64,000 bases of DNA from Verrucomicrobiota bacterium (GCA_027622665.1 JAQBYT010000018.1:1-64000), one strand, 5' to 3'; numbered from the stretch's first letter, positions 2,604 to 54,484 are shown. Notes: generated by a model not told the origin, from the letters alone. Program-made: numbers and translations.

Positions 2604-2647
2604 ATTCAGGTTTGCGGAAACCCGCCCAAACGGTTATCTCTACCTTT

Positions 2648-4108: not shown

Positions 4109-4140
4109 CCCTTGCGGTCGCGCTAAAACCATTCGTCCTC

Positions 4141-4581: not shown

Positions 4582-4589
4582 GGAGTCTG

Positions 4590-5399: not shown

Positions 5400-5475
5400 T
5401 CGGTGGATTCTCCATGGGTTTTCAATTTCCAACAACTTTGATTCGGCGCTGATTTAGCGGGGAGCACTTTCTATT

Positions 5476-14153: not shown

Positions 14154-14166
14154 ATTTATTCGTGAT

Positions 14167-14198
14167 CTCGGGAATCCTCCCGAGGTGCAGAATGCACC
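14167..14198. other. Two adjacent short inverted repeats between the giant gene and the sulfatase
   Basis: CTCGGGA-ATCC-TCCCGAG (14167-14184) and GGTGCA-GAA-TGCACC (14184-14198), with no U-tract. Confidence 0.5.
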
Positions 14199-14212
14199 CA
14201 TGCGGCTGTGGT

Positions 14213-17200
14213 TTAAGGAGTGGTAATACGGAGGCGAAGGAAATTACGACCACCGGAAGGAAGAGGTGCATCGGTTTCGTAGACTATGCGTTCCATTTCA
14301 CCACCTAAATCGACTCTGCGTGGGGACGACTTGAATCCAGAACTAGTCCATGTTCGTAAATCAGTACTTTTTTCGATATGGTATTGGAAATTTTCATCAG
14401 TAGTCTCTAGGGGCGACTTGAATCTAACGATGGAGATAGCTTGATTACTGGTGTTCAACTGGCCACGAAATGGTAAGTCTTTCCAGTTGTCAGGACCAAG
14501 AGAATCCGAACCAATGGCTCGCTCGAATAGATTACTGAAGCCGTCCCCATCGGAATCGCTGTAATCCTCATCGAAAACCTTCTTCGCCTCCACTTCGGAT
14601 AGACCTTCGCGAGCTATTAGTCGTCGTACGAATCGTTCCCTCGTGCCATCGTAACGTACATCTCCTCGCCGAAAGTCAATCCATGCCTTTTGGGTTGGCT
14701 TGACAACTGTCAGCAAACGGGTCGCGGGAGGGGCTGGAACGAACTGGTCATTCCCCGGGGCAGTGATGCTAAGTTCAACAGTTCCAATTCCTACGGGAAC
14801 AACGCGATGTCCGTCCACTACCCTGACACGAGTGGAATTGGAACTGGTTATTTGCAAGGGTATTCCCCCGCTCGAAGAGACCCCTTGAAGAATAAAGGCC
14901 CGATGGTTCATGGGCATATCTCGCACACCACCTTTTTCACCCGTATTTGGAAATCGTATTTCCTGTCTTTGTTTTGTCGTCACTTGGAAGACATGATTTA
15001 CGGGTGTGGCGGCATGCACGTAAGCACTCCCACTTTGATTTGCAGTGATACTTATCTCTCCGGCAATTCCATCAAGAGTTACGACACCAGATGAGTCGAC
15101 TGAAGCATGGCCGTATTCAACTGTGAAAATAACCGGCAGACTGAAAACTGGATGATGTTCGCCGGAAGAAATTGCGCTCGCGATCAATTGGAATGGTGGG
15201 TCGTCCCTAGTCTTTTCTACGACTATGGGCACGAATGTGATATTTTGATCGTCCTTGGTGACTGGTGGAATTACATGCAATTGCAAGCTAACCGGATGAG
15301 CTGGGTCATAACGGTCGTCGCCGACTTGCATGGCGGTGATGGTCGTGGTGCCCGCATCTATAACGGTCACGAGAGTACCGGAAATTACAGCAACATTCGG
15401 ATTCGAAGAGACATAGAATACCGGAAGGCCTGAAGATGCGAAGGCGGTGAGAGGGAATGAAGAATCACCAACGGCCTTCTCCACCAAGGGAGGGAAAGTG
15501 ATCGTTTGAGAACCTCCGAAGGTTGGCGGGGTCGAACGGAATGGATGAATGGAAGAGAGTGAGTCGGTGATTCCCCATTTGTGGGCAAGGTAGCCCTCGA
15601 TCTTTTGACGGTTTACGGAATTTACATCCTGATTATAGATTAGGGCTTCGGCGATTTCGCCAGTAAATCCGTTGCCGACCTTGTCTAATGCTTGTACTTC
15701 CCCATTAACTCCACCTGCCTCAATTACTTCACCATCGATCCACAGGGATTGGCTACCGGGAGTTACCCGCAGAGCATTGACGGACCAACTCGAACTGCTG
15801 ATGTTCGATTTGAGATTTACGCCTGCGGTTTCTCGATGAAGACCAAAATAACCGTAAGCGTCGGTGGTGCTAATATCTCCACCCAGAACTTTAGACGACC
15901 CGATGCCGTTTTGTTTGTGGACTAGGAAAATGACACGAGCTGCCGGAACTTCATTGTCTATGTCAAAGGATTCGCTCTGATCAAATCTCACGACTGCTTT
16001 TTCATTGAGAGTATTGGGCTGCCAGACAGGCATGTTGTTCGAGTTGCCTTGGATGGGATTGTTAGTGTTTCCGGATTTGTCGCCCCAAAGACTGATTTTG
16101 TTGCCCGGAAGGAAGTCGGTAGGCTCGTCGCGATATTGATCACCATTGACGTCGTTGCCGTCGAACCAGAGTTTCAGTCCGGGAGCTGAATCACTGAAAA
16201 GATTACCGTAACCTATGGTAAAGGATTGGGTCACGGAGGTTGCCATTTCATATCGGTTGTCTCCTGTTTGCAATGCAGTGAGAGTCGCGACTCCAGGTCC
16301 ATGTACGCTTGCAGTATTTCCTGCCACCGTGGCAAGTGCCGGGTCGGATGTGGTAAATGACACGGGGAGCCCCGAGCTGGAATATGCGGAAATAGTAAAG
16401 GGGAAGTCGCCGACGGAGTGATCATGAATCGCCTCAAAAGTGATGGTTTGAGGAACTTTCCAGACCGTCATGTAATTGTCCACGGGCAACGCAGATTCAT
16501 AATCATCATTTCCAGCTTGTCGTGCCGTTGTTTTTGTTGTGCCCGCGCCTATGATTTCCACTTTGTTGAAATCTCCTCCAGTCTGCCCATGAATTAGAGC
16601 AATTGTCGAATCTCCGAGTGCAGAGTCATACACACGAAGGTCATCCACCTTCCCGGACATTGAAGCTAAAGCATCTCCGACATACAGAGCTGATAGTCTG
16701 CTTGCTAGGTTGATGCCGCTTATAGCAACCCCAGTAAGTTCGCTTGATTTGTTGCCGTCTGCATATAGAAGAAGGGATCCATTTGCATCCTTACTGTAAA
16801 CTAGTGCAAGGTGAGTCCATTTGTCGTTGGTTAGGATGGGGGTCGAGGAGGATATTTTTACAGTACTGGCATTTCCATCTTGGTGGAAAGTTGCCGTAAC
16901 GAAACCATCCGTGGCATTTTGCTCTATCCGAAAAACTTGCATCGGGACAATATTGTCCTTGGACAGAATTACCGCCCCATCGGTAGAAGTATCTTCAGGT
17001 TTAACCCACAAACTGATGGTGAATTCTTCTTTTAGAGGAACACCACCGAGGTGAACGTATCCGTTTGGCGTTCCCAAGGAAATCGCGTTGTCGAACTTGC
17101 CTTTAGTCCATGCTTTGCCGTTTCCGGTACTAACAAGGTTCACAAGAGTGCCATTGTAATTACCGCGTTCGTCTTTAGCGGAGTTGTAAAGATTTTCATC

Positions 17201-20200
17201 AAACTTCCAATAGGCTATCAGGTTGTCTTGCGCAGTGACTCGAAGTCGGGCGATATTTGTATCTTCTATTTGGTACAGGAGTGGAAGTAGAGTGGCATTC
17301 CCATCTTCATCGAATGAATTTCCGAGTAACTGGAATGGGAGAGAGTCGGCGGCTACATTTGTCAAATTCTGATCAAAGATGAGAATTTGTGACTTCTTGT
17401 CGCTTACGGTAAGCACTCCGCTCAAGTAGGTGAAGAAATAATTGGAGGCATTAACTTCCTCAGGTATGATTTTATAAGCTCCAGCAGGACTGCCGACATT
17501 CGCAATGGTGGTTATATCCACCGGACTTAAGAGTGAACTATTGTTCTCTCCGTTAACGAAACCAGTAAGATCATAGGTGAGGTCTGGATTGGGTTCGCCG
17601 GTTTTACGAAATTGGTTATGTGCCTTGATTACGAGTTCCGCCTTACCTATTTGAATCCGTCGCAAAACATTTTTGGCGGGATACCAGTTTTCATTTCCTG
17701 CTTGTGAAACCCTGATGCCTACCATGCCGGGTCCTTTGATGCTCAAGCGACTCCCATTGAGGTCTACTGCTTGCGAACCGGATACTATTTCAAATGAAAC
17801 CGGCAAGCCTGATGTTGCGGATGCATTTAAATCAATGGGAGGGGCTCCATATCGCAAACCCGCAAGAGTTTGCTGAAATGAAATGCTTTGTCTCCCTCGA
17901 AGCACTTCTAAATTTATGGTTCCCGTGTCTATTCCGGAGGGGTTTCCCACGGTTACTTGAACATTGAAAGAACCAGTAGCTTCGGGTCTTCCGGAAATGA
18001 TCCCAGTGGCGTAGTCAACGGCAAGCCCTTGGGGCAGGTTGGTAGCGTTGAAATCGGTGGGACCTTTTGTGGCCGTGATTTGATAAGAGTAGTCCATTCC
18101 ATATCTAGCAACCAGTGCGGAATCTCGTAGATTGTAAACTGCATCAAGTTCTTCGATGGTAAGAGCTCGGTTGAATACTCTGAAATCGTCGAATACACCA
18201 TCGGTCATTGGAGATTGAGAAGGCATGCCGCCAATATAGAGGCTATTGTCAGTACCTTCCCAATCCAGAATGCCGGAAGTAGGCACTGCTGTGGTAGCCT
18301 CCGCAGCATTGAGGAATAGCCTAAGTTTTGTTCCATCGTAACTGAGGGCATAATGATACCATTCATCCAATGCGAAGGGTGTCCAATCCGTGCTTTTCCA
18401 ACTTCCTTGCGTTAGAGCGGGTCCAATGAACGCTCGACCTCTTACGAAACCGTCAAGAGCTTCTACTCGGAATTGTCCGCTTCTCAAAAGGTGGGCATTC
18501 AAGTCGGAGGTTTTAGCCCAAAAGGTGACGGCGAAAGAAGCTGAAAGTCCGAATGCGGTCTGAGACTCGATAGTGGCTACGTCATTCACCCCATCGAATT
18601 TTACGCCAAGACCTTCCCTGCCAGCTTGTCTAGCTTCCACGGGATCTTCGAAATTGAGAAGCGTACCCGTTTTACCATTGCCCGAGGCATCTGTCAGAAT
18701 CGTGCCGTTGTTCTCATCGAAGCTCCAGTGAGCCAAGGGCATGATGGGCAACTGAATCTTCGGTCGATTGTCGAATGAAGGAGGACCGTCTTGATACGGA
18801 TGCCCTCCGAAATCTCCGTTCCCGCTACCGTACAGTTCGGATACGTCCAAGGTGGTCAGTGCTCGAGAATATATTCGAAGTTCGTCCAGCTTTTCGGTGA
18901 ATCGTTCATCGCCCGCTTCGAAATTTCCTATCACGCCAACATTGTTCTTGGCTACTAGACTACTTTCTCCAACGAGATTTCCGTCGATGTAAAAGACAGT
19001 CTTGGCGTTGTCGACGTCACCCACGGCAACGAGATGATGCCAGCCAGTCGAGAGGGTGTTGGCAGTGAAGCCCGAACCGGTAAAGCCGTTGAGTGTATTA
19101 TATACTCCAAGCTGACGATCCCCTGCTGCGTCAAACACGACATGGCGATCGTTTGAAGTCGCGGCAACCAACGTATGCTGCAGGAGGGTTCCGGTATCTG
19201 TCAGAGGTGCGGTGAACCATGCTGAAACAGTCCAGTTTGATCCCATCGGAACTTCGTTTACCCCCAGCGAAATATTTGAATTACCTCCGGGAACTCGGAT
19301 GCCGGAACCGAACTGGCCGGAAACCTGCAAGTCGGCATCGGCAATGTTAATTAAGGTGCCTTGTCGGTTTTTTGGGGAACTGTCATATACATTGGAACCA
19401 TCCACTTCTTCGAAGTTGAAGTAAAGCTCGAGATCTTGCTTTACCTTGTAAGAATTGCCGACGAGATCATCCGTAACTTCCCATTTGTGGGCAAGGTAAC
19501 CTTCAACCATCTGAACTTCAGCCTCCGGCAAAAAACGATCGAATACGAGGATCTCCGCAATGTCGCCAATGAATTGTCCATAACCTGTGGCAGGATCATT
19601 CCCGACGGACACTCGATCGATGTTTGTAGATTCGTTGTTGTATGAAGCTAAACGCGAGCCAGGTTTGACATCCAGAGTCCAACCCGAGGAACCATCGTCG
19701 GCACCTATTGCCACTCCTCCCCCTTTAGCCACCGCGAACGCATGAACGCCTCCGACTTCAGCACGAAGGGTGCCGACGTTTAAATATTCGCCTGAAGCAA
19801 AACGCACAGCTGGGCGCCCATCAAAGGATGATGTAATGTAAATGGGGCGGAAACCACCCACTGTTTGAGTTGCATTTTGCCCGCTCTTTGACTTGTCCGT
19901 CCACTTGCCGATCGGTTGGTCGGGGAGGATGTTGTCCGATTCTCCGTCCCCATCGATATCATTCGCATCCAGCCAAAACACCAACCCGTCCAAGGTATAC
20001 TTTGTAAGCCGAGAGTCACTCGCGGTGAAGAACTTATGCAAGGGTGACCAATAGCTGCCGCCAATGTTTTCTGCATGAGCTCGGAAGAAGTAACGCTTGT
20101 CGGCTTCGAGATTGCTGAGTTCTGTCGAAACGGGTCCCAGTCCAACGGGTTGTCCTTCGTTGATGACGGCGACCTGATCCCAATTTGCCGAGTTGTTGGC

Positions 20201-50200: not shown

Positions 50201-53200
50201 AGCATTTGTCCTGACCCAAGTATCGCCCGTAAGCAAAAGAGCTTGTCCAAACTTGCCGTTAGTTTCAAATTGGGGAACATTCCCGTTGTTGCCGGCAAAA
50301 GATCCAGTGAAACGGCCGAAGTAATCATAGGTCGCAAGGCTTGTGGCGTTTTCCTCGAATTGCCACCATGCCTGTAAACGATCAGCTCTAGTTACGGGCA
50401 TGCCGAAAATAACGTCAAAGGACTCCGCTAAGCTTTCAACTCCACCCGAGTCTTTGCCTAGACCCGCCTGCAGGCTGACGTTGAGACGACCATTCGGAAT
50501 TGTGGGGGCTATGGTGAACTGCCAATCACTTCCTGCGCCAGTGTAGTTTCCGTCGTTTGCGTTGTTGACGGAAATGCGGCTCTCATTGAAGTCGTCGATG
50601 GGCCAAGTTTGGCCGTATTTGTGGAATTCCAGGGATATGGGGATTGGAGAATCATGGGTTACCGGCGGGAAGGTCGGGGTCACCGTGAGGACGAGGTCGC
50701 CGTAACCGTTCTCATAGGTGGCGGTTATGTCAGAAGGGGAAAGAGCCGAGGCGTGGATGCGCAGGTCGTCGATCATTCCATCGAAGCGACCTTTGGCAGG
50801 TTCTGTCGGATCGGTGATTGCGAGGCGAAGCACGGCGTCTGCATCCACCACGAGTTTACCTCCGAACTGGCTCCATGAACCTCGAGTTACTCCATCGAGG
50901 TAGAGTTCGAGTTCGTCCTCTCTCGTCGTGTCGTAAGTTAGGGTTAAGTAATGCCACTGGTTGTTAGATACGCCCGCGGGTGTTGCTATTTGCTCGGATT
51001 TCAACTCGGTGGAGAGATAGGTTTCCAAGTTGCCAGCCTCTGTACCGATTTCGATGGATGATTCTGTCGAACCCCTAAGGCTAAACATGACGTTGTTTAT
51101 GTTGTTGGCATTCCAAGAAAAGGAGTCAGTTGCTCGTTTGAACCAGAAAGAAACTGAAAAACTATTTGCAGAAGACAAACCCGGGTCAGTTCCTAATTCA
51201 ACATGATCTCCTTCAGCGTCAAACACCACGGAAGAACCGAATTTACCGAATGGCGACCAGTCGCTTCCGCCTTTAAGTTCTCCCGGGATCACTCCCATCG
51301 CATCCGTGATTGCGGTTCCTTTGGCGTCATCGAACCACCACCACCTTATGAGATCTCCATGTTGCCGCACTGGAGGAGTAAGGAGAATGGAAGTGGCGGT
51401 GGGTAGGGAGGGGTCTCCGTTCCCTGTTGCCGCTCCTGCTGCAAGGGTTAAAGAAACTTTCGTTATGCTTGTAGGAGTAAGTTCGAATGAGTATTGGGAT
51501 CCTGACAGGGTTTGGAAGTTTCCGATGGTCGCCCCCGTAACGGAAATATCTCCTTCCGTGAAACCGGCGACTGTTTCAGCTTCGCCGAAACGAGAGAAGT
51601 TCACTGTAACGGGTATGACCCCGAGATTGGTAATTAGGGGGGCATCAAAATTGGCCATCAACCCCATGTCGCCTTCGCCGCCGTTGTAGATGTTTGCAAT
51701 GTCATCCGACGATAGGGCAGCGGAGTAGATCCTGGTGTCATCCAGGGTTCCCTCTGCGAATATGGATGACCCCATTGAGCCGAAATACCAGTCGGTGAGA
51801 GTGTATTCACCAGCTGCGTCCAAGGTGAAACTCTTGGATCCCGCTAGGGTTCCGTCTACAAATAACTTGACGGCGCCTGCTGTGCGATCGACCACGCTAG
51901 CCAGATGGTGCCATTCGCCTATGGAGATTCCAGAGGAGGACTGCGCTAGTTCAACTGAACCATCACTTAGTACGTGATTCGCTCCAATTCGCCCCTGGAC
52001 CTTGTGGAACAGACCTTTGTCGGCAGAGGTTCCTAGTCGTGCAACCAAGGGGTTCGGTGGTTCCTCTGTTCGAAAAAGATCCATGCTATTGGCTGTGGAA
52101 TTGCGAGGTGCAACCCAAGTCGTGCCGCCCGTGGCATCCCATCCGAAACCAGTTGGCGCATTGGCCCGACCCGCGCCACCACCTCCATTGGACATTCGCA
52201 ATTCGAAGTCAAACCAGCCTCCCGAGCCGAAGTTCGTATTGCCGAAAGTGACATTGTTCCATCCGGCATCATTCAACAATTGCTGACCGTTAACGACAAG
52301 GTAAGCCACGTCGTCGATGTCTTCTTGAAAGGCCATTTCGCCGTCGGCATCGAATATTTGGCCACTGTAGACGACCGTCCAATTGTCTTTCCATGGCGGT
52401 TTCGTTTTGGACTCGGACAGGGAGGGGCCAAGCGGATCGATTCCATTGGTGGCTCCCGAGTTCGCTGTATTCGTATCTAAGTTTCCGGGGTTTGCAGCAT
52501 AGCTCATGTTGCCGTTTAGACCGCCTGCCTTAAGTCCTGCAATATAACTGGGATTGGCCGCGGGTTTAAACCAAGTTGAAATCGTGTAGTCTCCTTCTCC
52601 CAAGTCAAGTGGGGAACCTGAAGCTTCACGATAGATAGAGCTAATGTCGAAATTGGTTAGACCGACCGAATAGATGCGAACGTCGTCTATCAGCCCTTGG
52701 AACGTTTCCCCAATACGGACATCGTCGCCAGATGCGGTATTAACTGGCTCACTAGCTGACCAACTTGAACCATCGAAGACACCATCGACGTACAGCTTGA
52801 CTTGATTAACGTCGGTGGAACTTTCCAATAAGACTGCAGCAACGTGGTGCCAGCGATCATCGGTTACGATGGTGTTCCCAACGATTGCACCACCATTGAC
52901 CTCGACTCGTATGGCTCCGGCTTGGCCGTTATTAATCTGAGTGCGGAAGAACCATTTCTGGGCTGCCGTGTCGGTTCCCCAGTGTAAAACTCGACCATCG
53001 GTATCTGTTGTCTTTATCCAAGCGGATAGGGTTCTTGGATTGGAACCGGTTATACCTTTGTAGCCGGTTATCAAGACCCTGTCGTTACCTGCCTCATTAA
53101 AGCTTATACCATTACCTATCCTGCCACTGGTCCAAGAGGCTCCGTTCTGCAAAGTTCCATTATGGTCATTGCCGGATGAGTCCGAGGCTATGGTTCCGGA

Positions 53201-54484
53201 ACCCTCGTCGAATGTCCACCAGGCAGCCAGATCATTGGGACGGGTAATTCGGTCGGGGGGAATTAGCGCGTTAGCCACGGCATAGTCGTCGACCCCGTCA
53301 AGAATCAAGGCTCCTGCGCCAAATTTCACATTTGCACCACTGGCCCATGACGCTCCTCCGAAAATTGTGGCGTTGGCATCGCCCGAGGAATCAGCGGCTA
53401 CCGTTCCGTTGGTCTCGTCGAATGTCCACCAACCCACGAGATCTTCAACTCGAGTAACCTTGAAGTTGTAATTGATTCTGTGAGTGGTTCTGGTCGAATA
53501 ATCTCCATTGGCGTCTTGGGCTACTCCTGTCGGTAAAGTAATAAATATAAACGTTTGATTCCTGTCAGGTATCAATTCGAATTGATATCGAGAGGCATTG
53601 ACGTCGGAAGGGGTGAAATTCTGTACCGATGCTCCTTTTACTTGAATGTCGGTTTCGAGAAAGCCCGAGACGTTGGCATCGTTGCCCGCGTTGTCGCGAA
53701 AGATAATCGAGACAGGAATGGGTTGAGCGTGAGTGGCCAAAGTCGCATTGATCTCCACGCTAGGTCCAAAATCTCCCATGCCGTCCCCATAGGACACTTC
53801 AACCTCGTCCAAAGATAGAGCGACTCCATAGAGGCGGACGTCATCGATAAGACCCTCGAATGTATCGCCGCCGCCCGGAGTTCCCCCGATTCCAAGCTTG
53901 CCGTTATCTTGAGTGACGTTCCTCGCCTCGTCAACTGAACCAACGATTAGCCCGTTAAGATAGGTCTTTAATTTCTTACCATCATATGTCGAAACCAGAT
54001 GATTCCAAGTCCCGTGAGCGATCTGGAATGTACCCGAATTGACGTAATCTGCCTGTAAACGATAGTAGACCTTGATCGAGTCTCCACCTTCATCAAATTG
54101 TACAAAATATGGAGAAAATACATCTTGTCTTTTAGATAGTATCTGAGTCCAGTCCTGTTGTGATCCGGAGCTTTTGAACCAAAGGGCGATAGTATGTTTA
54201 TCTTGAGCCTTCAGATTGTCGTGAGTCCCGACTTCAGCCCAGCCCGAGTTCTCCGTTAGATCCAAGGCGAAACGTGAAATGCCGGATCCCCATTGACCAC
54301 TTCCGTAAATGGTTGCATCCACACCGTTGCCGGTTGCGTCTTGAGCAACCGTGCCGTTACCTTCATCAAAGGTCCAACGAACTAATAGATCATCGTTGCG
54401 GACGACGCCCTCGAGCATCGACACCACATATCCTAACACCATCGTTAGGAACAATATTTTTAGTGGAAACCTCATGCGCGACAT
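14213..54484 (-). CDS. Giant (~13,400 aa) secreted multidomain surface protein/adhesin (LamG, PA14, DUF2341, Ig/FN3-like, Gly-rich, F5/8-like, MBG)
   Basis: One uninterrupted 40-kb ORF with an N-terminal signal peptide. The start is probably an ATG at 54490, 54484 or 54475 rather than the TTG at 54499. It contains many WxFDE...IDD(V/L)R(I/L)Y LamG units, nine WLDA...EGYLAHKW-type units, three DLRF-containing DUF2341-like units, GLPxGL..ISGTP Ig units and YYYR FN3-like units. Confidence 0.95.
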   Translation of the reverse strand: MSRMRFPLKILFLTMVLGYVVSMLEGVVRNDDLLVRWTFDEGNGTVAQDATGNGVDATIYGSGQWGSGISRFALDLTENSGWAEVGTHDNLKAQDKHTIALWFKSSGSQQDWTQILSKRQDVFSPYFVQFDEGGDSIKVYYRLQADYVNSGTFQIAHGTWNHLVSTYDGKKLKTYLNGLIVGSVDEARNVTQDNGKLGIGGTPGGGDTFEGLIDDVRLYGVALSLDEVEVSYGDGMGDFGPSVEINATLATHAQPIPVSIIFRDNAGNDANVSGFLETDIQVKGASVQNFTPSDVNASRYQFELIPDRNQTFIFITLPTGVAQDANGDYSTRTTHRINYNFKVTRVEDLVGWWTFDETNGTVAADSSGDANATIFGGASWASGANVKFGAGALILDGVDDYAVANALIPPDRITRPNDLAAWWTFDEGSGTIASDSSGNDHNGTLQNGASWTSGRIGNGISFNEAGNDRVLITGYKGITGSNPRTLSAWIKTTDTDGRVLHWGTDTAAQKWFFRTQINNGQAGAIRVEVNGGAIVGNTIVTDDRWHHVAAVLLESSTDVNQVKLYVDGVFDGSSWSASEPVNTASGDDVRIGETFQGLIDDVRIYSVGLTNFDISSIYREASGSPLDLGEGDYTISTWFKPAANPSYIAGLKAGGLNGNMSYAANPGNLDTNTANSGATNGIDPLGPSLSESKTKPPWKDNWTVVYSGQIFDADGEMAFQEDIDDVAYLVVNGQQLLNDAGWNNVTFGNTNFGSGGWFDFELRMSNGGGGAGRANAPTGFGWDATGGTTWVAPRNSTANSMDLFRTEEPPNPLVARLGTSADKGLFHKVQGRIGANHVLSDGSVELAQSSSGISIGEWHHLASVVDRTAGAVKLFVDGTLAGSKSFTLDAAGEYTLTDWYFGSMGSSIFAEGTLDDTRIYSAALSSDDIANIYNGGEGDMGLMANFDAPLITNLGVIPVTVNFSRFGEAETVAGFTEGDISVTGATIGNFQTLSGSQYSFELTPTSITKVSLTLAAGAATGNGDPSLPTATSILLTPPVRQHGDLIRWWWFDDAKGTAITDAMGVIPGELKGGSDWSPFGKFGSSVVFDAEGDHVELGTDPGLSSANSFSVSFWFKRATDSFSWNANNINNVMFSLRGSTESSIEIGTEAGNLETYLSTELKSEQIATPAGVSNNQWHYLTLTYDTTREDELELYLDGVTRGSWSQFGGKLVVDADAVLRLAITDPTEPAKGRFDGMIDDLRIHASALSPSDITATYENGYGDLVLTVTPTFPPVTHDSPIPISLEFHKYGQTWPIDDFNESRISVNNANDGNYTGAGSDWQFTIAPTIPNGRLNVSLQAGLGKDSGGVESLAESFDVIFGMPVTRADRLQAWWQFEENATSLATYDYFGRFTGSFAGNNGNVPQFETNGKFGQALLLTGDTWVRTNAYGSALNVGGNKPRTISFWMYVFDGQQTDAGPYGYGSRACGNGKNESFCLRELHQDNYKRIRSQHWCWDPQFNAPTDIRNRWIHVAHIYTGTNVQVYFNGSRLADWARNEIDTGENYPFQFGRWTDETTANRIFLGLMDDFRVYDVAFSQAEIDTIYANGDGDLGIKSTLEVGRVVRDNPFKLGIKFERFGNPIEVTGLALDDLTLAPFTGAAGLLTKLSPGNYELDVQFNVPTDATITLRDSAITDRYGEGSPFASVTTRQMWRSVTSGENLTAWWPFDGDVGNIAQDRSGNENNATLIDAELTAEGRFGQGLRFAPDTIAARMQTNSASGVNIDSNSYTLSAWFNGLYSTTGKNSLFRSNEKPSNLDWDRMILFRGSDRTLCSFDGNDGNENNRYRSSGKTLNPLDYLGWHHVAAVAKGNRTYFFIDGKPVGSSDRQETSDVFLIGNHDSGEAFAEFLDDVRIYSISLSDAEVSGIYGNGFGDLGSTPIITASSPAHTNPISFSVGFGDKGQDSNVTGFSISDIQVINGTASDFNGSGFAYDFNVTTDSGAEEMLVTIPSAAANDESNFSTEGTTHRVLFHTAVYRETDIISRWTFDEANGSSVRDVGIAHNTSFLRGDAHLTTGKFGKALNLDGSGDYAEIPKFRGIYSDGDFTISSWVNLNRAGLTSNADDAGIFCRSGNGNDSVLLWYNVNGTGLANRTFTFNAGNPGTAANRLDGPDNAARVSVWQHVACVMNGNERFLYVDGEQAGFLPVGPTSNTRMEGSSVRIGSWDNSGNFDFNGLIDDVRLYDVAFTDAEVAILHGNGFGDIGVVPLVTIASPTDRSPVSVTLDFKRFGTLESVTNFDLNSTNDLNVTGGTIVNANGSGASYTFDIIPDGQISIITISLPKGAGDVTLNEKTSASTSSFAFRPSLTAEENLVIWYPFENLDDNSTPDISGGPGINATIESSLGQLIGHWTFDETSGSTAANSGITGNTHDATLTSGALFSTTDWKFGGAALHLPTGSTGAHARVTTPLDLGGDVTKATFSLSAWFKKLYPESSGKWRTFTRGSNSHHHFMVQNGAVNAGVYANANGDWRDSGEFDLPAADSASSWHHIVVVSDAITNKTKLYLNGVYKGDSDRATGDNIYAIGNYQAGDQRFAEYLDDFRVYDFVLADSHVTEIHGTGDLDLNRLPTPSPGKFGNSLFLPESGYAKANSDQVSLLNELTLSMWAKIHNDNAGVLARNGQFSLQYEMDNTVRASVYTGGAWRTTRSRSILGEWAHHAMTYDGAEVSLFLNGAKMASTPASGFLEWGDGADHHLYLGYAGSLGANAEIDDFRLYNRALESSEISAIFNNGAGDAGLLPNFAGMTPFGSNPASITTSFVKGSTSHSVTGFATEDLNATNADVLNFTDTGANNAYSLDLNATGDPTMVRLAIPADAVDLNGTGNQPGAAEFHYRIVTAVEDDLLAWYTFDENNGTFVGDSSGRKRHARLSSDVARVAGKFGKAIDLNGDQVSVPFFIDQSSATSTGLTFSAWINPDDVDSGLDGEKTLFATEDTANGWDWGFFIRYRRMSLWTGQSREEIAHRIFVKEWAHVAASFDPILQVATAYHNGEPSVATTFNFTDTANMIRIGSDYNSNRIFDGRIDDVRIFGRPLSTEEIRAIWGGGSGDLAPAPSFIVESPTTADLIPVTLRFNQTVGDFNSSQDLLVTGGTITDFNETTYTFKIAPSSFDSNITIEMAANSVTNAYGRKNESANQQIEYRAHRVGEAHLVAWWKFDDAVGNTAYDSAGGSSNGTMIAADWVVGKFGGALAFGTSDKSMSVDGLPNELKTATISFWVLPRAESELSIINNNQLGGDVDLRSINRRLVLRCSDLDQRGLPITANDEFWSGSVLNLSQWNHVALTYDLLNKRILFYVDGILDAESPFAGTHALALDHQFWVGGNDTNSDNFFQGDLDDLRIYDSVLNETEISGIHGEGFGDFDNQLVTFESKPSLTTPIPVTVRFLQDGFPIEVTGFDQLDLNVPGGNISSFSKQSAGVYNFGITPLNPSVSGTVTLSIPDGTALSDKNVAFPAGSHVVEYRLPLVREEALIAYYKFDDVGGTEASNEIEGGPSAKLENGLIFENAGKFGRALSFSDGDDRLDIEGGLPLPSDWTLAVWFKELFSNTEVRGLFRGSLESHALVPKSGDDLGIFISGSTGFIDSTVDLPSANYLDWHHITVVGTGGKTIFYIDGVKTGFTNGQSNDALKHIGNTNSSSSWDRFARFLDDLRVYRTALTAEEVTAIYGSGVGDSDRTPSIPGGLALTVEKGKPINFKVPVPDASSITATGLPGDLSLDAATGIISGSTDVTGTVNVEVNATNLNGSSIGNLALRMVDFDAYSAKMEIRFPGTTESGLPRDLPGLVLWLDAESVQGVIGDRVTVWGDSSGNENNLDKVRGRPVIAGHESQEGQRVVRFDGYSQLHSTTDFGPMLSEYSVLTVARYLGGDDERIISTIGSNWAFGLGNGNTGHWTAGTTVIDSAAQSDTNWHLHSGTMTSGALATLRRDGYTLATDKTGADPTAYKPALFALGGSNANERFGKGEVAEIMIFDRVLTATEIESMESYLRDKWFGGSTKDFPLLVRLGPGPVAGFDYSTFADQTTAGDLRFFDSSLRELPHELETWDIAGESIAWVKLNDIVPGEIVTAYWGNDSDKVAPAYRADGSTWSNFEGVWHLSQTSADPVVASATGNRNGSRNGGVTSGDSSAIGWGYLFDGLDDSITISGYSGILGSSPRTISAWVKTSGNTGDIAGWGGSGNHWQFGIGSGTLQLAAGTGISNGTTSVNDDEWHHLAVTFPTGSSDSNQSILYFDGKQEPAGNSATGTVSTASVGDVTFGYGVQDPSRFNGKMDEIRISGVERGSRWIRYSAENQKLGSTFVSTLTEYLIAPQLPSELNASVALNIPFIYAIPASPPASEYNATGLPSWASLNVATGEISGTPDATSVFSATVTATNAKGSTTVTLNLISTTTPSTASLSALGTENVEGRSATLLGDMNSTGGDAPGVTVFYGTSDGGATSSAWDANKSLGSINQGLFNAKLTNIDSGETYFFRFQAVNNSGTSWSESLSFTTKRFDQGTIRIHTGDNETGLNSGFYWDKSAGESKILDANSTLTTTYVAPDGSAWPVTVTTFHFPENLYLGTNLSQIILSGKNSLSLQIDGNATIEKSFSGATPLANPVVLGATKIDGHDGYYGDDTTRSNRIGLSVLGGYGGNQGPGRGYKTWLTGGGASHAGEGGQGDRGPGGLSYGSGALDFLLGGSGGGGGNGGESGGGGGAMEIVASGDVTIAAGVTIKMNGGTIFVNPNQGAYRTGGAGSGGGIRIEASNIRNLGILEALGGDAAGQDERETGQRYRQSVGGGGGGGRVAIISDGTIVKGSINVNGGKGMAEGLPGLPGSVYVGSKSQVAGDLIFNSGTLTIDTGGSWSHSSGTKGAGVVTHHSFKDNGGARFGYGICTFSFDSVNLGPGVAVVVRGRNAIQLKVAGNVLINTAISLDGSSGSQGAYSGRAGPGGWNSGRAADNVISNEHLALEGQGPGGGHGFETGRSNGGGSYGGQGTGGLFGGTPGSIYGDDVITYLVGGSGGGHAERGTGNSGGGGGAMGIQSDGNVSIGSNGLLSVNGGNGLYAGDRSGAGGSGGSIRLEAANISNSGTLSAKGGDALIMSSGGAGGAGRIALLTPGNLTQGTLDVTGGEIVRQTIPDVLRSEDLVGHWQFEESSGINTAADSSVNGLEGTITGSPDRVPGMIGNAFRFDGNDDRVVIPNNTAMHLDKYTVSFWVYPEKNNDYWTGLFGRQGRNFNFWFGDGNHATRGFVRHRFHEGTNTSSGPGDTFLSAWNKWFHVVGTNQGLGGIAATYLDGILIQQKTITAALGINTTAPLNIGVNPEDVNSNSSYFLGIIDDVRLYGQALPPEEVYYLYQGDMGLAERAPLTSARQAGSGTATIVQMPSVSNPSFTTATYGQPFSTSTSAGYGVTYEFTGLPPGLDTREPYTPANIPSTLAWYASDDNSSTEIEYGTIGTGMRVSLWEDKSGNGNHATGFGSPSFVSNGLNGMPVIRYSGTDGEYHSWSNMTDIRTVFWVVKRNSGPSFLLGDDNQYHFHSQGSTFFEGNTHTNVSSGVLAINGTTANGTIANIPATMSVISLRTTGNVEASNFSNDRNIAGRYWNGDLAELLIYNTPLTDANISKTEGYLAHKWGLASDLQGGHPYQASAPVSWDPSDLSPSLWLDANDTGYLASKDHYVKTWKDISGNGRDATTTDFSTGPTIIQNQLNGKPLVRFNIGENLTISDPRPMPMTIYIVGKQYNDAGANRELFTYNGWRLAHNGNWSLMRYNNNDPDLNSGKSSGVYSMVGWRVKRYDYAMWVNGESGGGSTSNQWHQNVLFDRINFDSGWELGEIMMVQDKMDENDRLQLEGYLAHKWGLTTSLPSTHPYKTEPPYGPQGPNITGTPNSAGSFPVTVKATNIWGSDTNTFTLTVDPVTPRAVSLAGTEVVSTGARLNGSLHDSGGEPSIASFDWGLSDSVLDRNLTLPGTHSAGSFSGFLTGLQPATTYYYRAKATNGAGSSLGNDVSAMPILHWKLDDLGSSAIDQMGQANGQINGSTSVIDSTRGRVLHFDGNDDFVNLGDIDVMDDIERFTFSVWFKRDSDIAGASPIASSNAINNVLLAQCSSASNDNMEIGTDGTKVEIYIDSGSGTSDGTIEVEAGIQNGQWHHLALTYGSEMTLYVDGAKISTWTQFNGRLESSDKSPLSLGASRPASEKWGDFNGSMSDAQIFPAELSALEIKILAGGTGVQSFTTGTLPAPPVIEVLPVSVVTDTNATLNFQLISYDGPAPNVTVYWGPVERADNEGLWTDSFEMGQLGAGLHAHKVGGYTSGDTVYYRVKAVGATASDWSDKAESFRTVGKPLVVALPATDSTKVSATLHGQVTSNGGEQVTVSLNPPGVSEGLIAHWRFDEGTGVEAGDSTGFNPVADIYGGATWTAGMGGAFGTALDFDGGTLAYIKSPDFRISGIVSFAGWVYKRNLGNWQRIVDFGNNPDSHNLIVANEGTTNSGVWNIRRNNVAMQLTVQDFWTLNEWQHVVATVNAQGVMKLYRDGELKGSYKGHVPNNQQRTKQYIGKSNWNDAYFDGMMDDMRVYDRDLTDQEVATIFAGDLETTLTLGGDAPLVQVFWGDEDAGFNTDVNASDNSKWDNVVNLGIRDLGTIDIPVTGLTGGETYYYRIHAQNVAGEVWSPQATKFNAGSFEFTTNSLPGQELILWLDASDVDGDGNASNEPFGGSLNFWRDKSGQGHHAGNGNGPEIAPGRWNGKTIAKFNGIDQYLRVANSEPFNFGEKATLFLVTKGDTIANWRPIISKRGEDGVGWQFRKPNNDYATFTIRGTTGPDGPYGGTKINDETHVWAARRDGFKRTQWADGNQEYSNDDRGPVPATDDDVVIGARDQDGIGSYAGVEIGEILFFRSDLSDGEVAMVEGYLSHKWGLSEQLSGTHPHKDAPPSFENRPGILNKSEISLLQNNPFSLQTITDRSADSYLASGLPSGLAINPVSGLISGTPTTEGTYGVTILASNAAGSRPSALTLHVKDYTRWEYSAPITIPGYDANDTLTDFPVYIEIDDNINSFSYEQFSSSAGFDLRFVGPDGAEELKYEPVKWNPTGVSSYWVLVPELKAGTTITAKWGNPNATTQPDYCLDGSIWNRYHAVWHMEGDDPTVIRESSGSLHGTAINFKEIPRVPGVIGKALSFDGINDYVNLPLESHPPGDAKQLTISFWAYGGPSLPKDTSILESGSSLGRHLNIHHPWSNGRIYWDAGSGSVDRIEKNDVDYRGKWVHWTFQKESSIGAMYIYKNGEEWMSGYSRTRPFGGPVDNFRIGSARTGGSYWNGWLDEVRISLDLASAASIKAAYSSQIPGANFVSIGTVEGPPTLIPGQVVRGFANDANRSVAYALQTFPSATEFAAAGLPFGLSINISTGEITGNPIQGSSTNITVTASNSKGSDQGIVSLVIVDVNEFTHKTAMTFEGYDGNETLKDFPALIRLGKDIPNFSLRSFQSASGNDLRFYDDNANELAYEIDEWNEASGELLVWVRLVELNSDLNVTAYWGHSLNAVQAPTYAYDGSTWSSGYRGVWHLGEMNSAGVLTDSSITRNHADDHDGLDRPSSVIGTGRTIGGGSDTFISVPYSSSLQLLEGSDYSFSTWIRLEDELPNDIPNAFLARGWDSWIPSNGNEPYFNNIAQGLFANKQFSGQRIWTNEDIHLDNDNEFMNANIGITSNDWYMSCFISTFVVPETGNYGFRMLRKDDRAVMWMDLDQNNKFDGNEKIGGNDDFTKDPVSPNELIAGEEYLVAFAHGEGGGGSRIEPWIKTPSVNWVIINPSDPVQNGWYKVPLDGTVADDLSSMNIYSYGSGKSFYFGSQAKPSLHHTLESSSVTSVSTIPVAKGTWRHLSTVVDVTNGKAKIYLDGNLTGQTDFSPEPAATINPGLSWVIGQGMVESAYDELRLSGVARSDAWIKASYHNQKSSQAFPTYGSVIGPNSINTPLIFTIEADQAFSHDVNATNPPLAFTATGLPSGLILDSSNGLISGTPSRSGEYEAIVTALYPSGQNPSEKHSFSIQPVLPQISINNLTTTTSTTTQVVYEITKSGGEDPEVFLVADILDMKHELYNWSRRLELGNKGLGVYTVTFGDLTPGSTYFLRMMARNSAGEAWTGANSFVRTQPLLSDLPGDAGIWLDATDIDANNLPDGFSVGSTISFWLDKSSYARHMSEVDGDPKVALSILNNKPVIDYDGNDRMYTSYDFRTNNAADWRAGGYTAFGISRYSGGDNERLITSNGGNWLFGHHGNTIGRYHFDGWIDQGTTADTNFHLFEARHQGKNQAADPSCEVWNNGIEGSYANSSKTGSNNDWFMPQRLSFGAMNSVTQESSKGQVAEFIMFHGLLSDEDRLKMEGYLAHKWGTSLPANHPWASEPPSFGESVINGTTQQFTPPKTRIPTVVNRPPSSVTNDSATLNGNLADYGTGIVLGPFTPLAYGGLKLWLDATDLDGNDIADSFSGNSPVSIWTDKSGLENNAIQGGVGKQPLYKPVSINSKASVRFDGTDDFLSFPRMSDIRTVFLAITRNDANNQAFLLGDSIRYDFHSANGRVWSIANASANLYNGSLRVNGNQRDGLITDFPTGEVCVVAVRSIGPVEASNFSNDRDIANRFWNGNLAELLVYSEPLSDEDMLKIEAYLAHKWGTEDNLPSAHNYKSEAPRRVNPAANVKVYWGANDGGTNPSDWDNDVDAGVAVLGLKKMTSGITVIADPIPTESASTYPAQKLLDDQLPADGWRSTWTAWYKTNTTLTFNLGKERILEKIRIYFMPRDRGDELKEVTIHAADEYLNFAPVKTENGKVGTRNVGTWMEIPMDGILTRAIKLEPVFQGWGHIWGEVEFWVRETGDFSIDVEGLSKGQTYYYRVFGSNDGGQDWADDTISFKAENKVFYDSGKLVIDTSNGTWKHDGGDFRMGEISPATFIDSLGNSFNYDVCRFTFDDVKLMGGLEIEVRGNATLEIVSTNGDAFLGATINLSGGSGGKVDRGTATAGGFAGGDLSSRGIGPGGGFEGGGGYGGTGGGATSTSGQPYGKGSLVDLLGGSGGGGLATSTGGGGGGALKVIASKQLIVDASISSRGGNGLLGSGGGSGGAIFLKGNSFSITAKGTIDVSGGSGGGGGGRIYLEGSDHFENQGTDNILLQGGAGAPSGTDGGARFTRPSNLENLEFFTGGIEIDTEMGVLTHSSGEVAFGIIEDNIHIGEDGIAWSYSTCRFPFTNIELGGGVIVTLKGRNALILEATAGKIVIGTNIKADGSAAANEKGGFGRLGGFSGDDTGFGTGRGPGASTQTTAEGHGAAHGGHGSGDARIYGDRALDSLLGGSSGGASATGGSGAGGGALWLKASGEVVIKPNVTISANGGNGEGSAASGSGGAVRLEGSRIFNHGRIEAKPGSGVKVSGNNQNRGSAGGRVAFISSGVAQVGEIDVSGEWLSNEGTIFVSRNYLNSNIVVDSGTVTFDTTTGYFSVENGPHGEGILSTHTYFDSDETIWEYGVCSFTFGQLRITGSAKVVLKGKRALSIQTVGTGEIYIGVDLRLDGGDASAVDGYGGRPVLNPWRGRSSERQTGFGPGGPLPAGNWGTGASFNYGDDQLSQLIPGSSGSSGRYFQGSGAGGGALELKAGGDLTISSGVLLSANGGNGRTDGYQWDHGGGGSGGAIRLVAKNIYNKGLIQAIGGNRAAGGGRIVLASSETIERGVISVGSGSIVEVRPPTVSGPSTVYLGYRGTGTVEMKKKGSTKPENLLGHWHFDNGTANDSSGNEFHGVASASSIFSVNTWDGQGMSVNLGGNHHILVSDGASESTFDGGNSFSVTLWVKGWPNGGFEPYISKRGEEGQGWQLRRRGGSGDQISLTMRGPGNDDWSVTKNINDGNWHHLVGTFGDGKRSIYVDGVLEGQENRNGAVNPTGSALVFGARDNSGVAGAPNIGAHAGVFLDEVRFYNTFLNQSEVDAIFKGDFTKVPVHVQYRITADNSPRSYGVEGILPAGLSIESGTGKILGRPLEVGSFDLNMTATNVAGKGSKPITFIVDPTAPEVAAIAPAEVTATSARLAARVINDGGQPPTLQFFWGDNDGGENLELNATDDIGWDHRIDLNGSFSDGTAGTFLTGLDRNQTYYYRVVAGNSVNPVVWSIPKQSDLAAWWRFDESSGISVLDYVGNSSGTLVGMTSGDRVFGQVGKALRFGGAGEHVTVTGYKGIAGTNARTITAWIKTTNTSGTIASWGENANGALWNFVIKDGKLRLDVKNGSIEGTATVNDGNWHHVALMFPAIGSDVTDAVLYADGSPDPITASSSRAVNTGSKEDLRIGSDSVFNDHFNGIIDEVRLYETDLSSSDLAAIFLNGTMRFKTSNVTVPPVVEVITVNPTSGGTATVTGEILSYDLTKPSVKIYWGDEDAGPTTGIDTGDNLKWDNVENVSAGNALGLGEFNATIAGMTPGKLYYFRAYASSSDGNDWSSGDPSIRNNLAAYWRFDEESGMLALDSTSKNRNVTLINFDSNASRSTGFVNKALLFDGTDDWVDLNLNSDAFFLKDAFEGRSITFRFKAPSQFYIGPAVTRYKNLVGYWALNEGSGTIAADATSAKTEGTVLGSASWGTEKFGGGLIHDGVDDALSIDASLFNEVHKGAYSISLWLKPAVEVDTSTKNAFLVRGFNQSPNNNYYNDINTLIGLAYNGQKVWTSEDLHLDNDNQFINAGIGITQNDQYMFLALSTFVVPEDGDYGFRCTRKDDYATIWLDLDKNNQFDVTDKLGGNNDFTRDPVTLVAGDKHIIAIAHGEGGGGSRIEPWIRTPSLAWTKINPADPNQDGFWILDSASPWGGIVTPTSLHKNIFQRNGEGLSLAPGNVLNMTHLTSTGTVSAVATTLAPSGAWRHVVGVFSPSEDKVRIYVDGNKSGEADIPFGATPLDIPAINYWRLGGGGGGTIFNDYLTGETDDLRIYDIVLSDSEIASIYNAGLSDLNVPQAAFVSQTIYDEGDSTNGLGVKFDSGILSAKINGAGNSLEQTHVIDLADDRWHHAAVTFGDSPKAFKLYVDGAISGSSQLFGSAILPAHADPPAIGKTIGTAVFNGLGNFKGLLDEFRIYDRGLTQEEVTQVYDGDMINTGVVSLHAIELPQIVTTPATDVFPERATLNANVLSTGGVITVIDEIRDLTFNAGTAPGIVGWYSASDMDGDAKDDLGLTYRNGAVVTSWKDSSGFMRDMVSSSGDPTYSMFGLNGKPVVSFDGDDKIWSNDNYDFLTNSGYTIFSIARYTGGDNERVIASRTRNWLFGFHGDRVGRWHPGGWVDQGSAANTLWHMNVGIIDKKSDPKAWFWHDGSQTQSGSNGSNDNDFAPGQLQFGGEGTGAGEMSECEVAEVIIYKGMLSEKNRQGVEAYLAYKWDLVGTILAANHPHKSANPFTGITRVYEVNNEGGDDPVVKIYWGETNGGENLTVDANNSANWDQVAVINEGQPVGLGPVSTELSNLEADKRYFFRAHAENIGGSYWSPLHKFFTASDSRLTKYTLDGLVFWLDANDIDGDGESDNILPDQPIGKWTDKSKSGQNATQTVGGFRPIYITSSFDGRPAVRFASGEYLNVGTLRAEVGGVHAFAVAKGGGVAIGADDGSSGWTLDVKPGSRLASYNNESTNIDRVSVGNDPATGYGQFIGDIAEILVFDRFLPEAEVQMVEGYLAHKWEVTDDLVGNSYKVKQDLELYFNFEEVDGSNVYDSSPKNRQGTLINIADADLQVSGQFGSGIRVPGGNSNISLGVNEVPMGSNWTVSAWFTAPLTDTGTLLQHTLVAATSNDRHVVFDAAGDRQLGVYNTLNGFTGSGFTANTLSTGWHHLVAVGDVDNAKTVFYIDGNLVGESSLVAKNNVGVIGNFEAGDERFTEKLDELRIYSRALTTLDVSELYGSGNGDFGGHPYQDGPPSFDNRPKIQLPIMPLAHWSFDENNGTILTDASGNGKTGTLLNFEDPVEARQAGREGLGVKFDGVNDVATIESQTAFGLSASFAVTFWAKTSDLNAHLLRSGQFRVEALDGFVRGRAFIGPALTQGSWKSTDWTPFALDEWYHYALSYDGTKLRLFLNAAEATTAVPTSGILDWEGTDNSLYIGGMPSQSPMTDGVFDDFRVFNRALTIEELDAVYNLRDSALVARYGMDYSYQITATKGPTDFNATNLPQGLAVDYATGIISGRPEATGSFNVQVTVGNPSGIDTGTINLEVLRGRQSISFQQTLAGLRYGAPPIDLNASATSGLPVSFEIVSGSQAVDLNGSRLSIKGPGMVGIRVSQAGNENWYPAKNVLRRIQIGKAELVIKAHNQFRKTGEPNPDLTYDLTGFVNGENNSSLLSPVDITTIANVGSPAGAYKIIPEEVNASNYFFTYLSGVLTVSDKKSQILIFDQNLTNVAADSLPFQLLGNSFDEDGNATLLPLLYQIEDTNIARLRVTAQDNLIAYWKFDENLYNSAKDERGNYNGTLVNLVSTGNGKAWTKGKFDNAISLGTPNGYVHLGGVPLKEEFTISLWVKPEDTSTDGAVILSKDNIVPMQVFRIEQNATDGFVTATFHQDGNASTVKISSSTPILTNDKWTHLALVYSKDANGSLLLYADGNKSSELTGVAISGINLASRLSALYVGDALASMSGKVDDLRVYDSALGDSTIALIHGQTGGDFNKVEIIGAGTTKTTARQAGNDDYESALPVDNYMTVWKVPQTITFEAIHDHSVGDFPFTISAYSSSGLPVSFTTSDPALATVAGNTASVHGPGVATLTALQTGDNRYEMATSVTQSFTIGYGNLFSDSAPGLKLWFDGNDVNGDQYRDEPTDFLPGNKISLWGDKSGNTNNPIQGNSNNMPVWQPNTLNEKAVVRFDQSESFDIDNEVPAARVIFLVHKQNGIGSSKVLGGDISTTDAYGYFGLHRETAGVNLKSNISSSSWSVNALRVTPGSQSLWIDGEVIEAGGVNGEVQALDKVGNGFTGEIAEALIYNQDVNSVNRQKIEGYLAHKWGITDSLSSIHPFRSTPPTFGGSQTITFPPLVEKAVGDSSFPLTAFASSGLPVFYVSSNPNVAVISGTLVTVIDAGTTTITAMQVGDDRYDPAHPVSLQLHVIPPVTKDDQNITFVPIVVEKTRDDPPFQLIASAISSGEHHPVFSLPVIFTVEYGHASVDSSGVVTLDGIAGEISITANQSGSAYVHAATPVNHVFQVTTKQRQEIRFPNTGEKGGVRDMPMNHRAFILQGVSSSGGIPLQITSSNSTRVRVVDGHRVVPVGIGTVELSITAPGNDQFVPAPPATRLLTVVKPTQKAWIDFRRGDVRYDGTRERFVRRLIAREGLSEVEAKKVFDEDYSDSDGDGFSNLFERAIGSDSLGPDNWKDLPFRGQLNTSNQAISIVRFKSPLETTDENFQYHIEKSTDLRTWTSSGFKSSPRRVDLGGEMERIVYETDAPLPSGGRNFLRLRITTP

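Follow-up and report, generated by a model that had tools for sequence, protein, structure and literature searches.

Domains nested within domains in a conserved giant protein of marine Opitutales-type Verrucomicrobiota, a putative branched glycan-binding fibre

The window analysed here is the whole 64,000-nucleotide stretch JAQBYT010000018.1:1-64000 from the genome of a Verrucomicrobiota bacterium (GCA_027622665.1), a marine bacterium of the Opitutales type. Its minus strand carries a single giant open reading frame (ORF) of 13,428 codons, free of N, which encodes a chain where host domains are interrupted by complete inserted domains (hereafter passengers), some of them interrupted in turn. 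Of its possible starts, the closest ortholog shares only the third, the ATG at 54475. The frame and its two ends are:

14213 to 54499, minus strand: giant ORF, with about 85 domains in our own count from profile matches
54407 to 54475, minus strand: likely Sec-type signal peptide, read by eye from a basic start, a hydrophobic stretch and a small residue preceding the mature start
14216 to 14590, minus strand: C-terminal domain with a TSP3-like acidic motif, belonging to an unnamed cluster whose commonest phylum is Verrucomicrobiota

By the same count, the chain contains 25 LamG domains and nine of the second LamG-like type of the initial annotation, here called LamG-B, together with three PA14 and one F5/8 domain, which are also of carbohydrate-binding type. 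It also has nine Big_12, eight He_PIG, nine FN3-like, three DUF2341, six C-terminal Ig and one MBG_2 domain, and the remainder consists of five pairs of an unnamed and a glycine-rich domain and of the C-terminal domain. A Pfam scan in 20 tiles over the whole chain matched Laminin_G_3, Big_12, He_PIG, MBG_2 and F5/8, more weakly DUF2341, PA14 and FN3-type domains, and the TSP3-like motif at the chain end; it found no catalytic domain and no RTX/haemolysin repeat. The domain mix of fibrillar adhesins, with repeated stalk domains (Big_12, He_PIG, MBG_2 and FN3-like) and adhesive-type ones (Laminin_G_3, PA14 and F5/8), is thus present in one chain. At the N-terminus, the window protein and its orthologs have, by eye, a signal-peptide-like stretch that is directly followed by a LamG domain. 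The C-terminal domain is kept in all complete orthologs and in one paralog and is possibly an anchor, sorting or export signal; a general role as an export tag is not supported, since its profile finds a single other full copy in the genome, in a paralog. The five pairs, each made up of an unnamed domain of 90 residues and a glycine-rich one of 210, lie at 40936-39038 and 27787-25316. They have no Pfam or NCBIfam match, and their Atlas neighbours are unnamed clusters, the nearest named one (G8, at 0.85) being a lead only.

The initial annotation had described six places in this chain where a host domain breaks off and resumes around complete inserted domains. All six nests (sites 1 to 6) proved to be real, and their limits had been given correctly to within about 20 bases:

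51662 to 53452, minus strand: nest 1, LamG host split into three parts (53452-53255, 52612-52556 and 52054-51662), from rejoining and shuffles
52613 to 53254 and 52055 to 52555, minus strand: the passengers of nest 1, a LamG (refined insert 53254-52613) and a PA14, at refined limits
46172 to 47449, minus strand: nest 2, LamG host with LamG 47344-46682, from rejoining, shuffles and empty-site orthologs
42140 to 43126, minus strand: nest 3, DUF2341 host with LamG-B 43072-42422 past its first strand, from rejoining, shuffles and orthologs
36737 to 38329, minus strand: nest 4, He_PIG-type Ig host with two tandem LamG-B (38203-36845), from rejoining, shuffles and empty-site orthologs
34451 to 35467, minus strand: nest 5, FN3-like host with LamG 35377-34688 at a Gly-Gly loop, from rejoining, shuffles and orthologs
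16457 to 17395, minus strand: nest 6, C-terminal-type Ig host with LamG 17233-16562, from rejoining, shuffles and a structure model

The hosts were scored against profiles built in this analysis. All twelve were made solely from uninterrupted copies, taken from the window protein and from seven orthologs and three paralogs, and the training sets of the five host profiles contain no piece of the six nest hosts. In each nest, the partial matches to the profile stop before the insert and resume after it, in order. When the inserts are excised, as had been proposed for checking the nests, the rejoined flanks match the profile over nearly its full length and outscore the best single piece in all six: 154 against 81 bits for the LamG of nest 1 (profile positions 2-215 of 215), 138 against 123 for that of nest 2 (1-214), 94 against 84 for the DUF2341 of nest 3 (3-111 of 111), 50 against 33 for the Ig of nest 4 (2-81 of 82), 102 against 72 for the FN3-like host of nest 5 (3-100 of 101) and 43 against 28 for the Ig of nest 6 (2-82 of 83). 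Joining the pieces in reverse order brings no gain, and shuffled versions of the smaller pieces never reached the joined score (0 of 500 for each nest). In a harsher control, the replacement pieces came from this repeat-rich protein itself, and the joined score was reached in 0, 6, 0, 4, 0 and 0 of 200 draws for nests 1 to 6; the successful draws probably hold the same part of another copy of the domain. As for the passengers, the PA14 of nest 1 falls below the Pfam cut-off (E 3.5e-4).

The six nests are real but they are not the whole inventory, as 13 further sites, including the deepest nest (23428-21167), had been missed:

35771 to 36736, minus strand: site 7, FN3-like host with LamG 36469-35795 ahead of its last strand; empty in 6 of 13 orthologs
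30641 to 31840, minus strand: site 8, LamG host with PA14 31585-31040; 83 against 56 bits, 0 of 500 shuffles
27800 to 29254, minus strand: sites 9a and 9b, FN3-like host in three pieces with LamG-B 29161-28460 and F5/8 28351-27920; 91 against 40 bits, 0 of 500 shuffles
24392 to 25345, minus strand: site 10 (weak), LamG 25300-24596 possibly past the first strand of a He_PIG; shuffles reach the score in 31 of 500
23432 to 24391, minus strand: site 11, FN3-like host with LamG 24091-23456 ahead of its last strand; Phe-x-Thr/Ser end
21167 to 23428, minus strand: sites 12a to 12c, the deepest nest, a probable FN3-like host around LamG 23101-21197, itself around LamG 22816-21617, itself around PA14 22585-22052
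20018 to 21169, minus strand: site 13, FN3-like host with LamG-B 21076-20249 in the same loop as nest 5; 75 against 56 bits, 0 of 500 shuffles
17900 to 18775, minus strand: site 14 (weak), LamG 18745-18122 possibly past the first strand of a He_PIG; 5 of 500 shuffles, with the larger host piece in the training set
38351 to 39082, minus strand: site 15, glycine-rich host with a LamG close to its end; no insert in 7 of 13 orthologs
18770 to 19999, minus strand: site 16, LamG-B whose C-terminal tail comes after an inserted LamG (19477-18806); tail motif in orthologs

The chain therefore counts 20 insertion sites, of which 17 are well supported, one is probable and two are weak. The inserts account, by our count, for 21 of its 38 lectin-fold domains, and for 4,550 of the 13,430 residues (about a third). 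Eleven hosts, those of the six nests and five others, passed the rejoin tests with 0 of 500 shuffles each; their halves add up to a whole domain of a kind that also occurs unsplit, as in nested insertion (A1-B1-C-B2-A2), and orthologs in which the site is empty exist for sites 2, 4, 7 and 15. Automatic peeling of the window protein, which sets a lower bound on the number of hosts, recovered only six and overlooked nests 2, 4 and 5. The rejoin scoring is blind to inserts placed ahead of a last strand or a tail. No gain was obtained at sites 7, 11, 12a and 15, where controls reached the score in 129, 66, 102 and 182 of 200 draws, and since end inserts escape this test the four sites rest on orthologs and motifs. 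At site 7, a tail profile scores 11.0 bits after the insert against -1.5 before it. The tail-profile scores of site 11 point neither way, and its support is the Phe-x-Thr/Ser end of the FN3, which comes after the LamG in all 13 sequences shown.

Within the deepest nest, both LamG hosts have 0 of 500 shuffles and are refolded in the model described below, but the sequence tests disagree about the FN3-like layer that would enclose them. With a nine-position tail profile, the sequence after the insert has the better score in just 5 of 28 rows, contrary to the nest, whereas the Phe-x-Thr/Ala/Ser end is found after the insert in 15 of the 28 and before it in none; at the end of an unsplit FN3 this motif is present in 26 of 26, and the model has a short strand at the corresponding position. 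This outer layer is considered probable, and nesting in the window protein is two levels deep, probably three, and in a relative it is three levels deep. At site 16, the tail motif follows the inserted LamG in 24 of 28 orthologs and directly follows the core in none of the 28. The LamG-B of that site (19999-19478) is poorly predicted and lacks about 70 internal profile positions, both in the window and in the orthologs; possibly it represents a reduced host.

Matches with E 1e-120 or better to the C-terminal 1,188 residues of the protein occur in 54 of the 76 genomes of the family, and the gene is found in 24 of the 26 family genomes that are at least 90% complete. In sixteen genomes that represent other families of this order, nothing better than a single-domain match to nest 1 came up. 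Within the family, the order of the nests is kept, at 33-91% identity, across dozens of separately assembled genomes (kin, not independent), which excludes misassembly. The alignment of orthologs for presence or absence of the inserts, suggested at the outset, revealed both empty and filled states at sites 2 and 4. Occupancy was read from insert length in 13 full-length orthologs of 10,771-16,423 amino acids; rows 1a and 1b and several 12b-12c cells of that table are unreliable, G009 was left out of the count for site 2 as its counterpart is ambiguous, and G014 is shortened by a contig end. At site 2, 9 of 12 orthologs have no insert and three have one, namely a LamG in G071 and an unnamed domain of 270 amino acids in G005 and G007. 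Site 4 is empty in 6 of 13 orthologs and holds one domain in one and two or more in six, its first slot being taken by a LamG-B or, in most other relatives, a LamG. The insert of site 3 is constant (215-217 amino acids in 13 of 13), that of site 5 measures 229-232 amino acids in 7 of 13 and 688-742, with further nesting, in the other six, and that of site 9a ranges from 231 to about 1,000 amino acids across relatives. Where a site is empty, the host flanks meet within a few residues. The LamG following nest 2, whole in the window, contains an F5/8-like insert in 5 of 13 orthologs, and an F5/8-like domain with a LamG-B ahead of the last strand in 4 of 13; a LamG-B that seemed to occupy site 2 in genus g3 was ruled out, because it sits in this next LamG. 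Automatic peeling of G010 gave LamG around LamG around PA14 around LamG-B, and the hosts of relatives also include PA14 and F5/8. As to hosts that are naturally unsplit, the LamG of G015 has a Pfam match of 74 bits and the He_PIG of G018 has none.

Two kinds of passengers from these relatives deserve separate mention. The 270-residue domain of site 2 (L001:7995-8816 in G005 and L008 at about 13800-14600 in G007) is 70% identical between both genomes, has no Pfam match and is a candidate new binding domain. A domain of 110 residues that ends in Cys-x-x-His occurs as four tandem inserts in a glycine-rich domain of G014 (L016, about 18200-19640), once in a glycine-rich domain of G010 (residues 5670-5780) and inside the nest-6 Ig of G018 (L012, about 4150-4500); its sequence suggests a possible metal-binding module.

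The passengers are also related across sites. The LamG of site 2 is 55% identical to a passenger of site 1a (G065), 51% to one of site 4 (G005), 40-47% to passengers inside the site-5 arm of four genomes and 50% to a paralog, and at most 31% identical to the other LamG of its own chain. Similarly, the PA14 of site 1b and the first passenger of site 4 are 67% and 65% identical to paralog copies. These identities suggest in-frame recombination, both inside the gene and with its paralogs, as the way in which passengers move. The paralogs share the domain kit but carry other passengers, such as a PA14 where the window protein has F5/8, and their DUF2341 is split at a different site. Passengers are gained, lost and exchanged at fixed loops of a nested architecture that is conserved throughout the family. 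The three partial paralogs of the window genome (G000), ended by contig ends, are located at C34 (8693-34975), C14 (1-12522) and C28 (2-13180).

AlphaFold2 models were made of 23425-20018 (28 rows, mean predicted local distance difference test (pLDDT) 76.9, predicted template modelling score (pTM) 0.44) and of 20017-16454 (29 rows, pLDDT 79.6, pTM 0.40). Self copies were dropped from the alignments, as were rows with stops or unknown residues (2 of 30 in A1, 3 of 32 in A2). In the first region, two stretches each superpose on a single solved LamG-type domain, residues 104-743 of the model on one (211 residues aligned, with Z 22.4 and a root-mean-square deviation (rmsd) of 2.8 A) and residues 203-597 on another (191 aligned, with Z 22.3 and an rmsd of 2.3 A), so that the two split LamG hosts are predicted to refold around their passengers, one inside the other. 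Structure prediction, which the initial annotation had recommended, is thus favorable for these two hosts, but it does not fix the overall shape (pTM 0.40-0.44). In the second region, the Ig halves of nest 6 are confident (blocks of pLDDT 78-87) and have their strands arranged as in the copy that has no insert; the LamG-B host with which the model begins is poorly predicted (pLDDT 30-70). Model residues 874-1188, with both halves and the insert of nest 6, superpose on dimethylformamidase residues 1-379 (Z 14.0, 228 residues aligned), a match that is no more than suggestive since the rmsd of 16.5 A reflects a different relative orientation. Foldseek returned only generic LamG matches for the first model. 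For the LamG passengers, domain 4 of the arabinanase AbnA (5HON, with arabino-oligosaccharide) is the best or tied-best match (Z 21.8 and 23.6), with sialidase CBM40 domains below it, a point in favour of glycan binding. Neurotoxin receptor-binding domains in the fold lists and the Pfam match to Toxin_R_bind_N come from the common fold, at 10-19% identity; a toxin identity was rejected, and neither Pfam nor the fold lists gave a toxin catalytic or translocation domain in the chain.

The initial annotation had concluded that the stalk bears side-arm lectin domains in a dendritic topology that linear annotation would miss. The branched connectivity of the domains stands, on the basis of the rejoin tests, the empty sites and the model, whereas the geometry of the arms is not fixed by the models. 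With respect to function, the balance tilts towards a single chain that works, through its about 20 split-host sites, as a secreted, surface-displayed, branched glycan-binding fibre. Export would start with the Sec signal peptide. Each passenger would leave and re-enter its host at one loop, which places it off the load-bearing backbone, as a side arm; the arms could then add sites without lengthening the fibre, and nested arms would offer still more binding sites at unchanged fibre length. PA14 passengers would hold sugars through calcium: the pair of adjacent Asp that binds Ca2+ and sugar in PA14 lectins, according to the accessible part of bioRxiv 2020.11.18.389155, is present in all three copies of the window and in 29 of 41 aligned rows (counted from the listing). 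Passenger exchange may retune which algal or particle glycans are caught. A wider formulation, which we put forward tentatively and hold to be rather doubtful, is that of a recursive plug-in system: a core family gene with sockets in at least seven host folds and lectin-fold plugs that all have their own sockets, copied from site to site and among paralogs by in-frame recombination, so that one kit would give each lineage its own branching pattern in tree-shaped glycan-capturing fibres of 1.2-1.8 MDa and 10,800-16,400 residues.

Several observations weigh against such a fibre. The low pTM values (0.44 and 0.40), and a pLDDT near 50 at several junctions and in the strands that form the stem of site 13, count against reading an arm geometry from the models, and the Ig-type hosts were not seen to refold directly in the fold comparisons because LamG matches fill the fold lists. 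The fold matches are only 12-23% identical, and many of them are LamG-type domains that are not lectins. The PA14 domains all lie below the Pfam cut-off (E 3.5e-4 to 7.5e-3), and a sequence search found no solved relative for them. Neither an outer-membrane export route nor a known anchor was identified. Furthermore, the gene is near-universal in the family, 2-Mb genomes included, so a structural role fits too. The latter could be a coat or shield against grazers or phages, in which LamG-type domains bind calcium and each other, cross-linking adjacent fibres, and passenger exchange varies the exposed surface and not the preference for sugars. This explanation is unlikely in our view, even though the gene occurs in 24 of the 26 near-complete family genomes and takes up about 2% of the streamlined ones among them, the best sequence match among solved structures (4QVS) is labelled as an S-layer domain-containing protein, and the Asp pair of PA14 is altered in several copies from genus g3. 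The fact that four different carbohydrate-binding-type folds serve as passengers speaks against it, as do the intact Asp pair of all three PA14 in the window and the three genomic paralogs with the same kit, which suggest several targets.

Alternatively, the insertions might form compact knots on a linear chain, without free arms, and build composite binding surfaces. Many junction linkers have only a few residues, the low pTM fits knots as well as arms, and, in the available part of its description, the inserted pentraxin-fold domain of dimethylformamidase is held by another subunit (PMC7686228). Yet passengers are removed or swapped for unrelated folds while the host is kept, which argues against specific packing, and the sequences of sites 5 and 13 (as well as the model for 13) have stem-like extra strands that come from both flanks; we judge this possibility improbable. 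A repeat-rich protein from a metagenome assembly may also raise the suspicion of an artefact made of degenerate tandem repeats, misassembly or chance partial matches, all the more so as the harsher control reached the joined score in 6 of 200 draws for nest 2 and 4 of 200 for nest 4, and as sites 10 and 14 are weak. That reading is refuted for 17 sites and has next to no probability overall: the same nests are collinear in dozens of independent assemblies at 33-91% identity, empty-site orthologs join their flanks within a few residues and the model refolds two split hosts.

The split-domain design is already known in kind; what is new is its scale, the variety of folds that act as hosts and the exchange of passengers throughout the family. 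RTX adhesins have Ig hosts that project binding modules and nests of two levels (PMC12077191, PMC10865825), and a survey found 35 adhesins with split domains, in which the splits lie past the first or ahead of the last strand and carbohydrate-binding modules or vWFA domains also act as hosts (bioRxiv 2025.09.30.679566). AhLap of Aeromonas hydrophila and FrhA of Vibrio cholerae resemble the window protein: a complete carbohydrate-binding module splits an Ig-like host, some inserts act as hosts in turn (beta-roll around vWFA around an insert) and passengers vary among relatives. Here, split Ig-like hosts emit ligand-binding-type domains in nests 4, 5 and 6 and at sites 7, 9, 11 and 13. Nevertheless, the giant protein is not an RTX adhesin. 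It has neither RTX repeats nor a type I secretion end, and a likely signal peptide, recognized by eye, replaces the N-terminal retention module. A scan of the 21 neighbouring ORFs gave no type I secretion genes. Its about 20 sites are spread along the chain, whereas RTX adhesins carry no more than about six binding modules, close to the tip; its hosts include FN3-like, DUF2341, LamG and LamG-B domains (with PA14 and F5/8 in relatives), and its passengers are mostly of LamG type, a term absent from the available survey text.

In the accessible text of an ECOD analysis, insertions occur in 20% of multidomain proteins, reach six levels and are smaller than their hosts in 77% of cases (PMC13114784), the six-level example being the Si3 nest of cyanobacterial RNA polymerase. 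The A1-B-A2 and A1-B1-C-B2-A2 patterns and hosts with two inserts are common to both. The window protein differs by inserts of 144-640 amino acids within Ig/FN3 hosts of 80-110, that is, two to seven times larger than the host, and by far more sites per chain, with a depth of two to three levels (three to four in relatives) that stays below six; the words adhesin and concanavalin do not appear in that portion of the text. The large subunit of dimethylformamidase (6LVB) also has an Ig-like domain (1-73, 338-383) that hosts a pentraxin/LamG fold, as in nest 6, but it is an enzyme and, in what is accessible of its description, has one insertion only (PMC7686228). Proteins of at least 10,000 amino acids are reported to be frequent in Verrucomicrobiota and related phyla (bioRxiv 2023.11.21.568195). 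The Omnitrophota giants of that source, in the part available, carry peptidase, glycosyltransferase and SecA-like domains, whereas the window protein has no catalytic Pfam match, and the words laminin, concanavalin and nested are absent from the same part. Neither this protein nor any nested LamG adhesin from Verrucomicrobiota is described in the literature searched, which did not cover subscription journals or supplements.

In marine Opitutales, a conserved gene takes the split-domain design known from RTX adhesins to a much larger scale, with recursion and with different folds. Annotated in the standard way, roughly one third of a chain like this one is mistaken for broken domains. The alleles found in nature, whether empty, filled or swapped, amount to a map of the Ig, FN3 and LamG loops that tolerate inserts of 150-1,100 residues, which bears on the folding of multidomain proteins and on the building of multivalent binders. 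They also point to putative glycan-binding modules in sulfatase-rich bacteria. Sulfatase-like ORFs number 97 in this genome, and two lie immediately downstream of the giant gene, in keeping with a glycan-binding role.

The neighbouring genes comprise fatty-acid genes, glycosyltransferases and these two sulfatases. Four seawater RNA assemblies contain short near-identical pieces in 26, 26, 26 and 18 of the 30 bins of 14200-34199; they are not counted as evidence of expression because the contigs give neither strand nor level and there is no silent-stretch control. Past the giant gene, at 14201-9538, come the two sulfatases and a dioxygenase-like gene; the first sulfatase starts 12 bases beyond the stop of the giant gene. 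A conserved partnership with this sulfatase was rejected, as only a fragment occurs in G005 and it was not seen beside most orthologs. FabD lies upstream of the giant gene in G005, G007, G009 and G087. Finally, genes for a desaturase-like oxidoreductase, for FabZ-, FabI- and FabH/OleA-like proteins and for an alpha/beta hydrolase are clustered at 2612-7388, a set that presumably resembles a lipid or olefin pathway.

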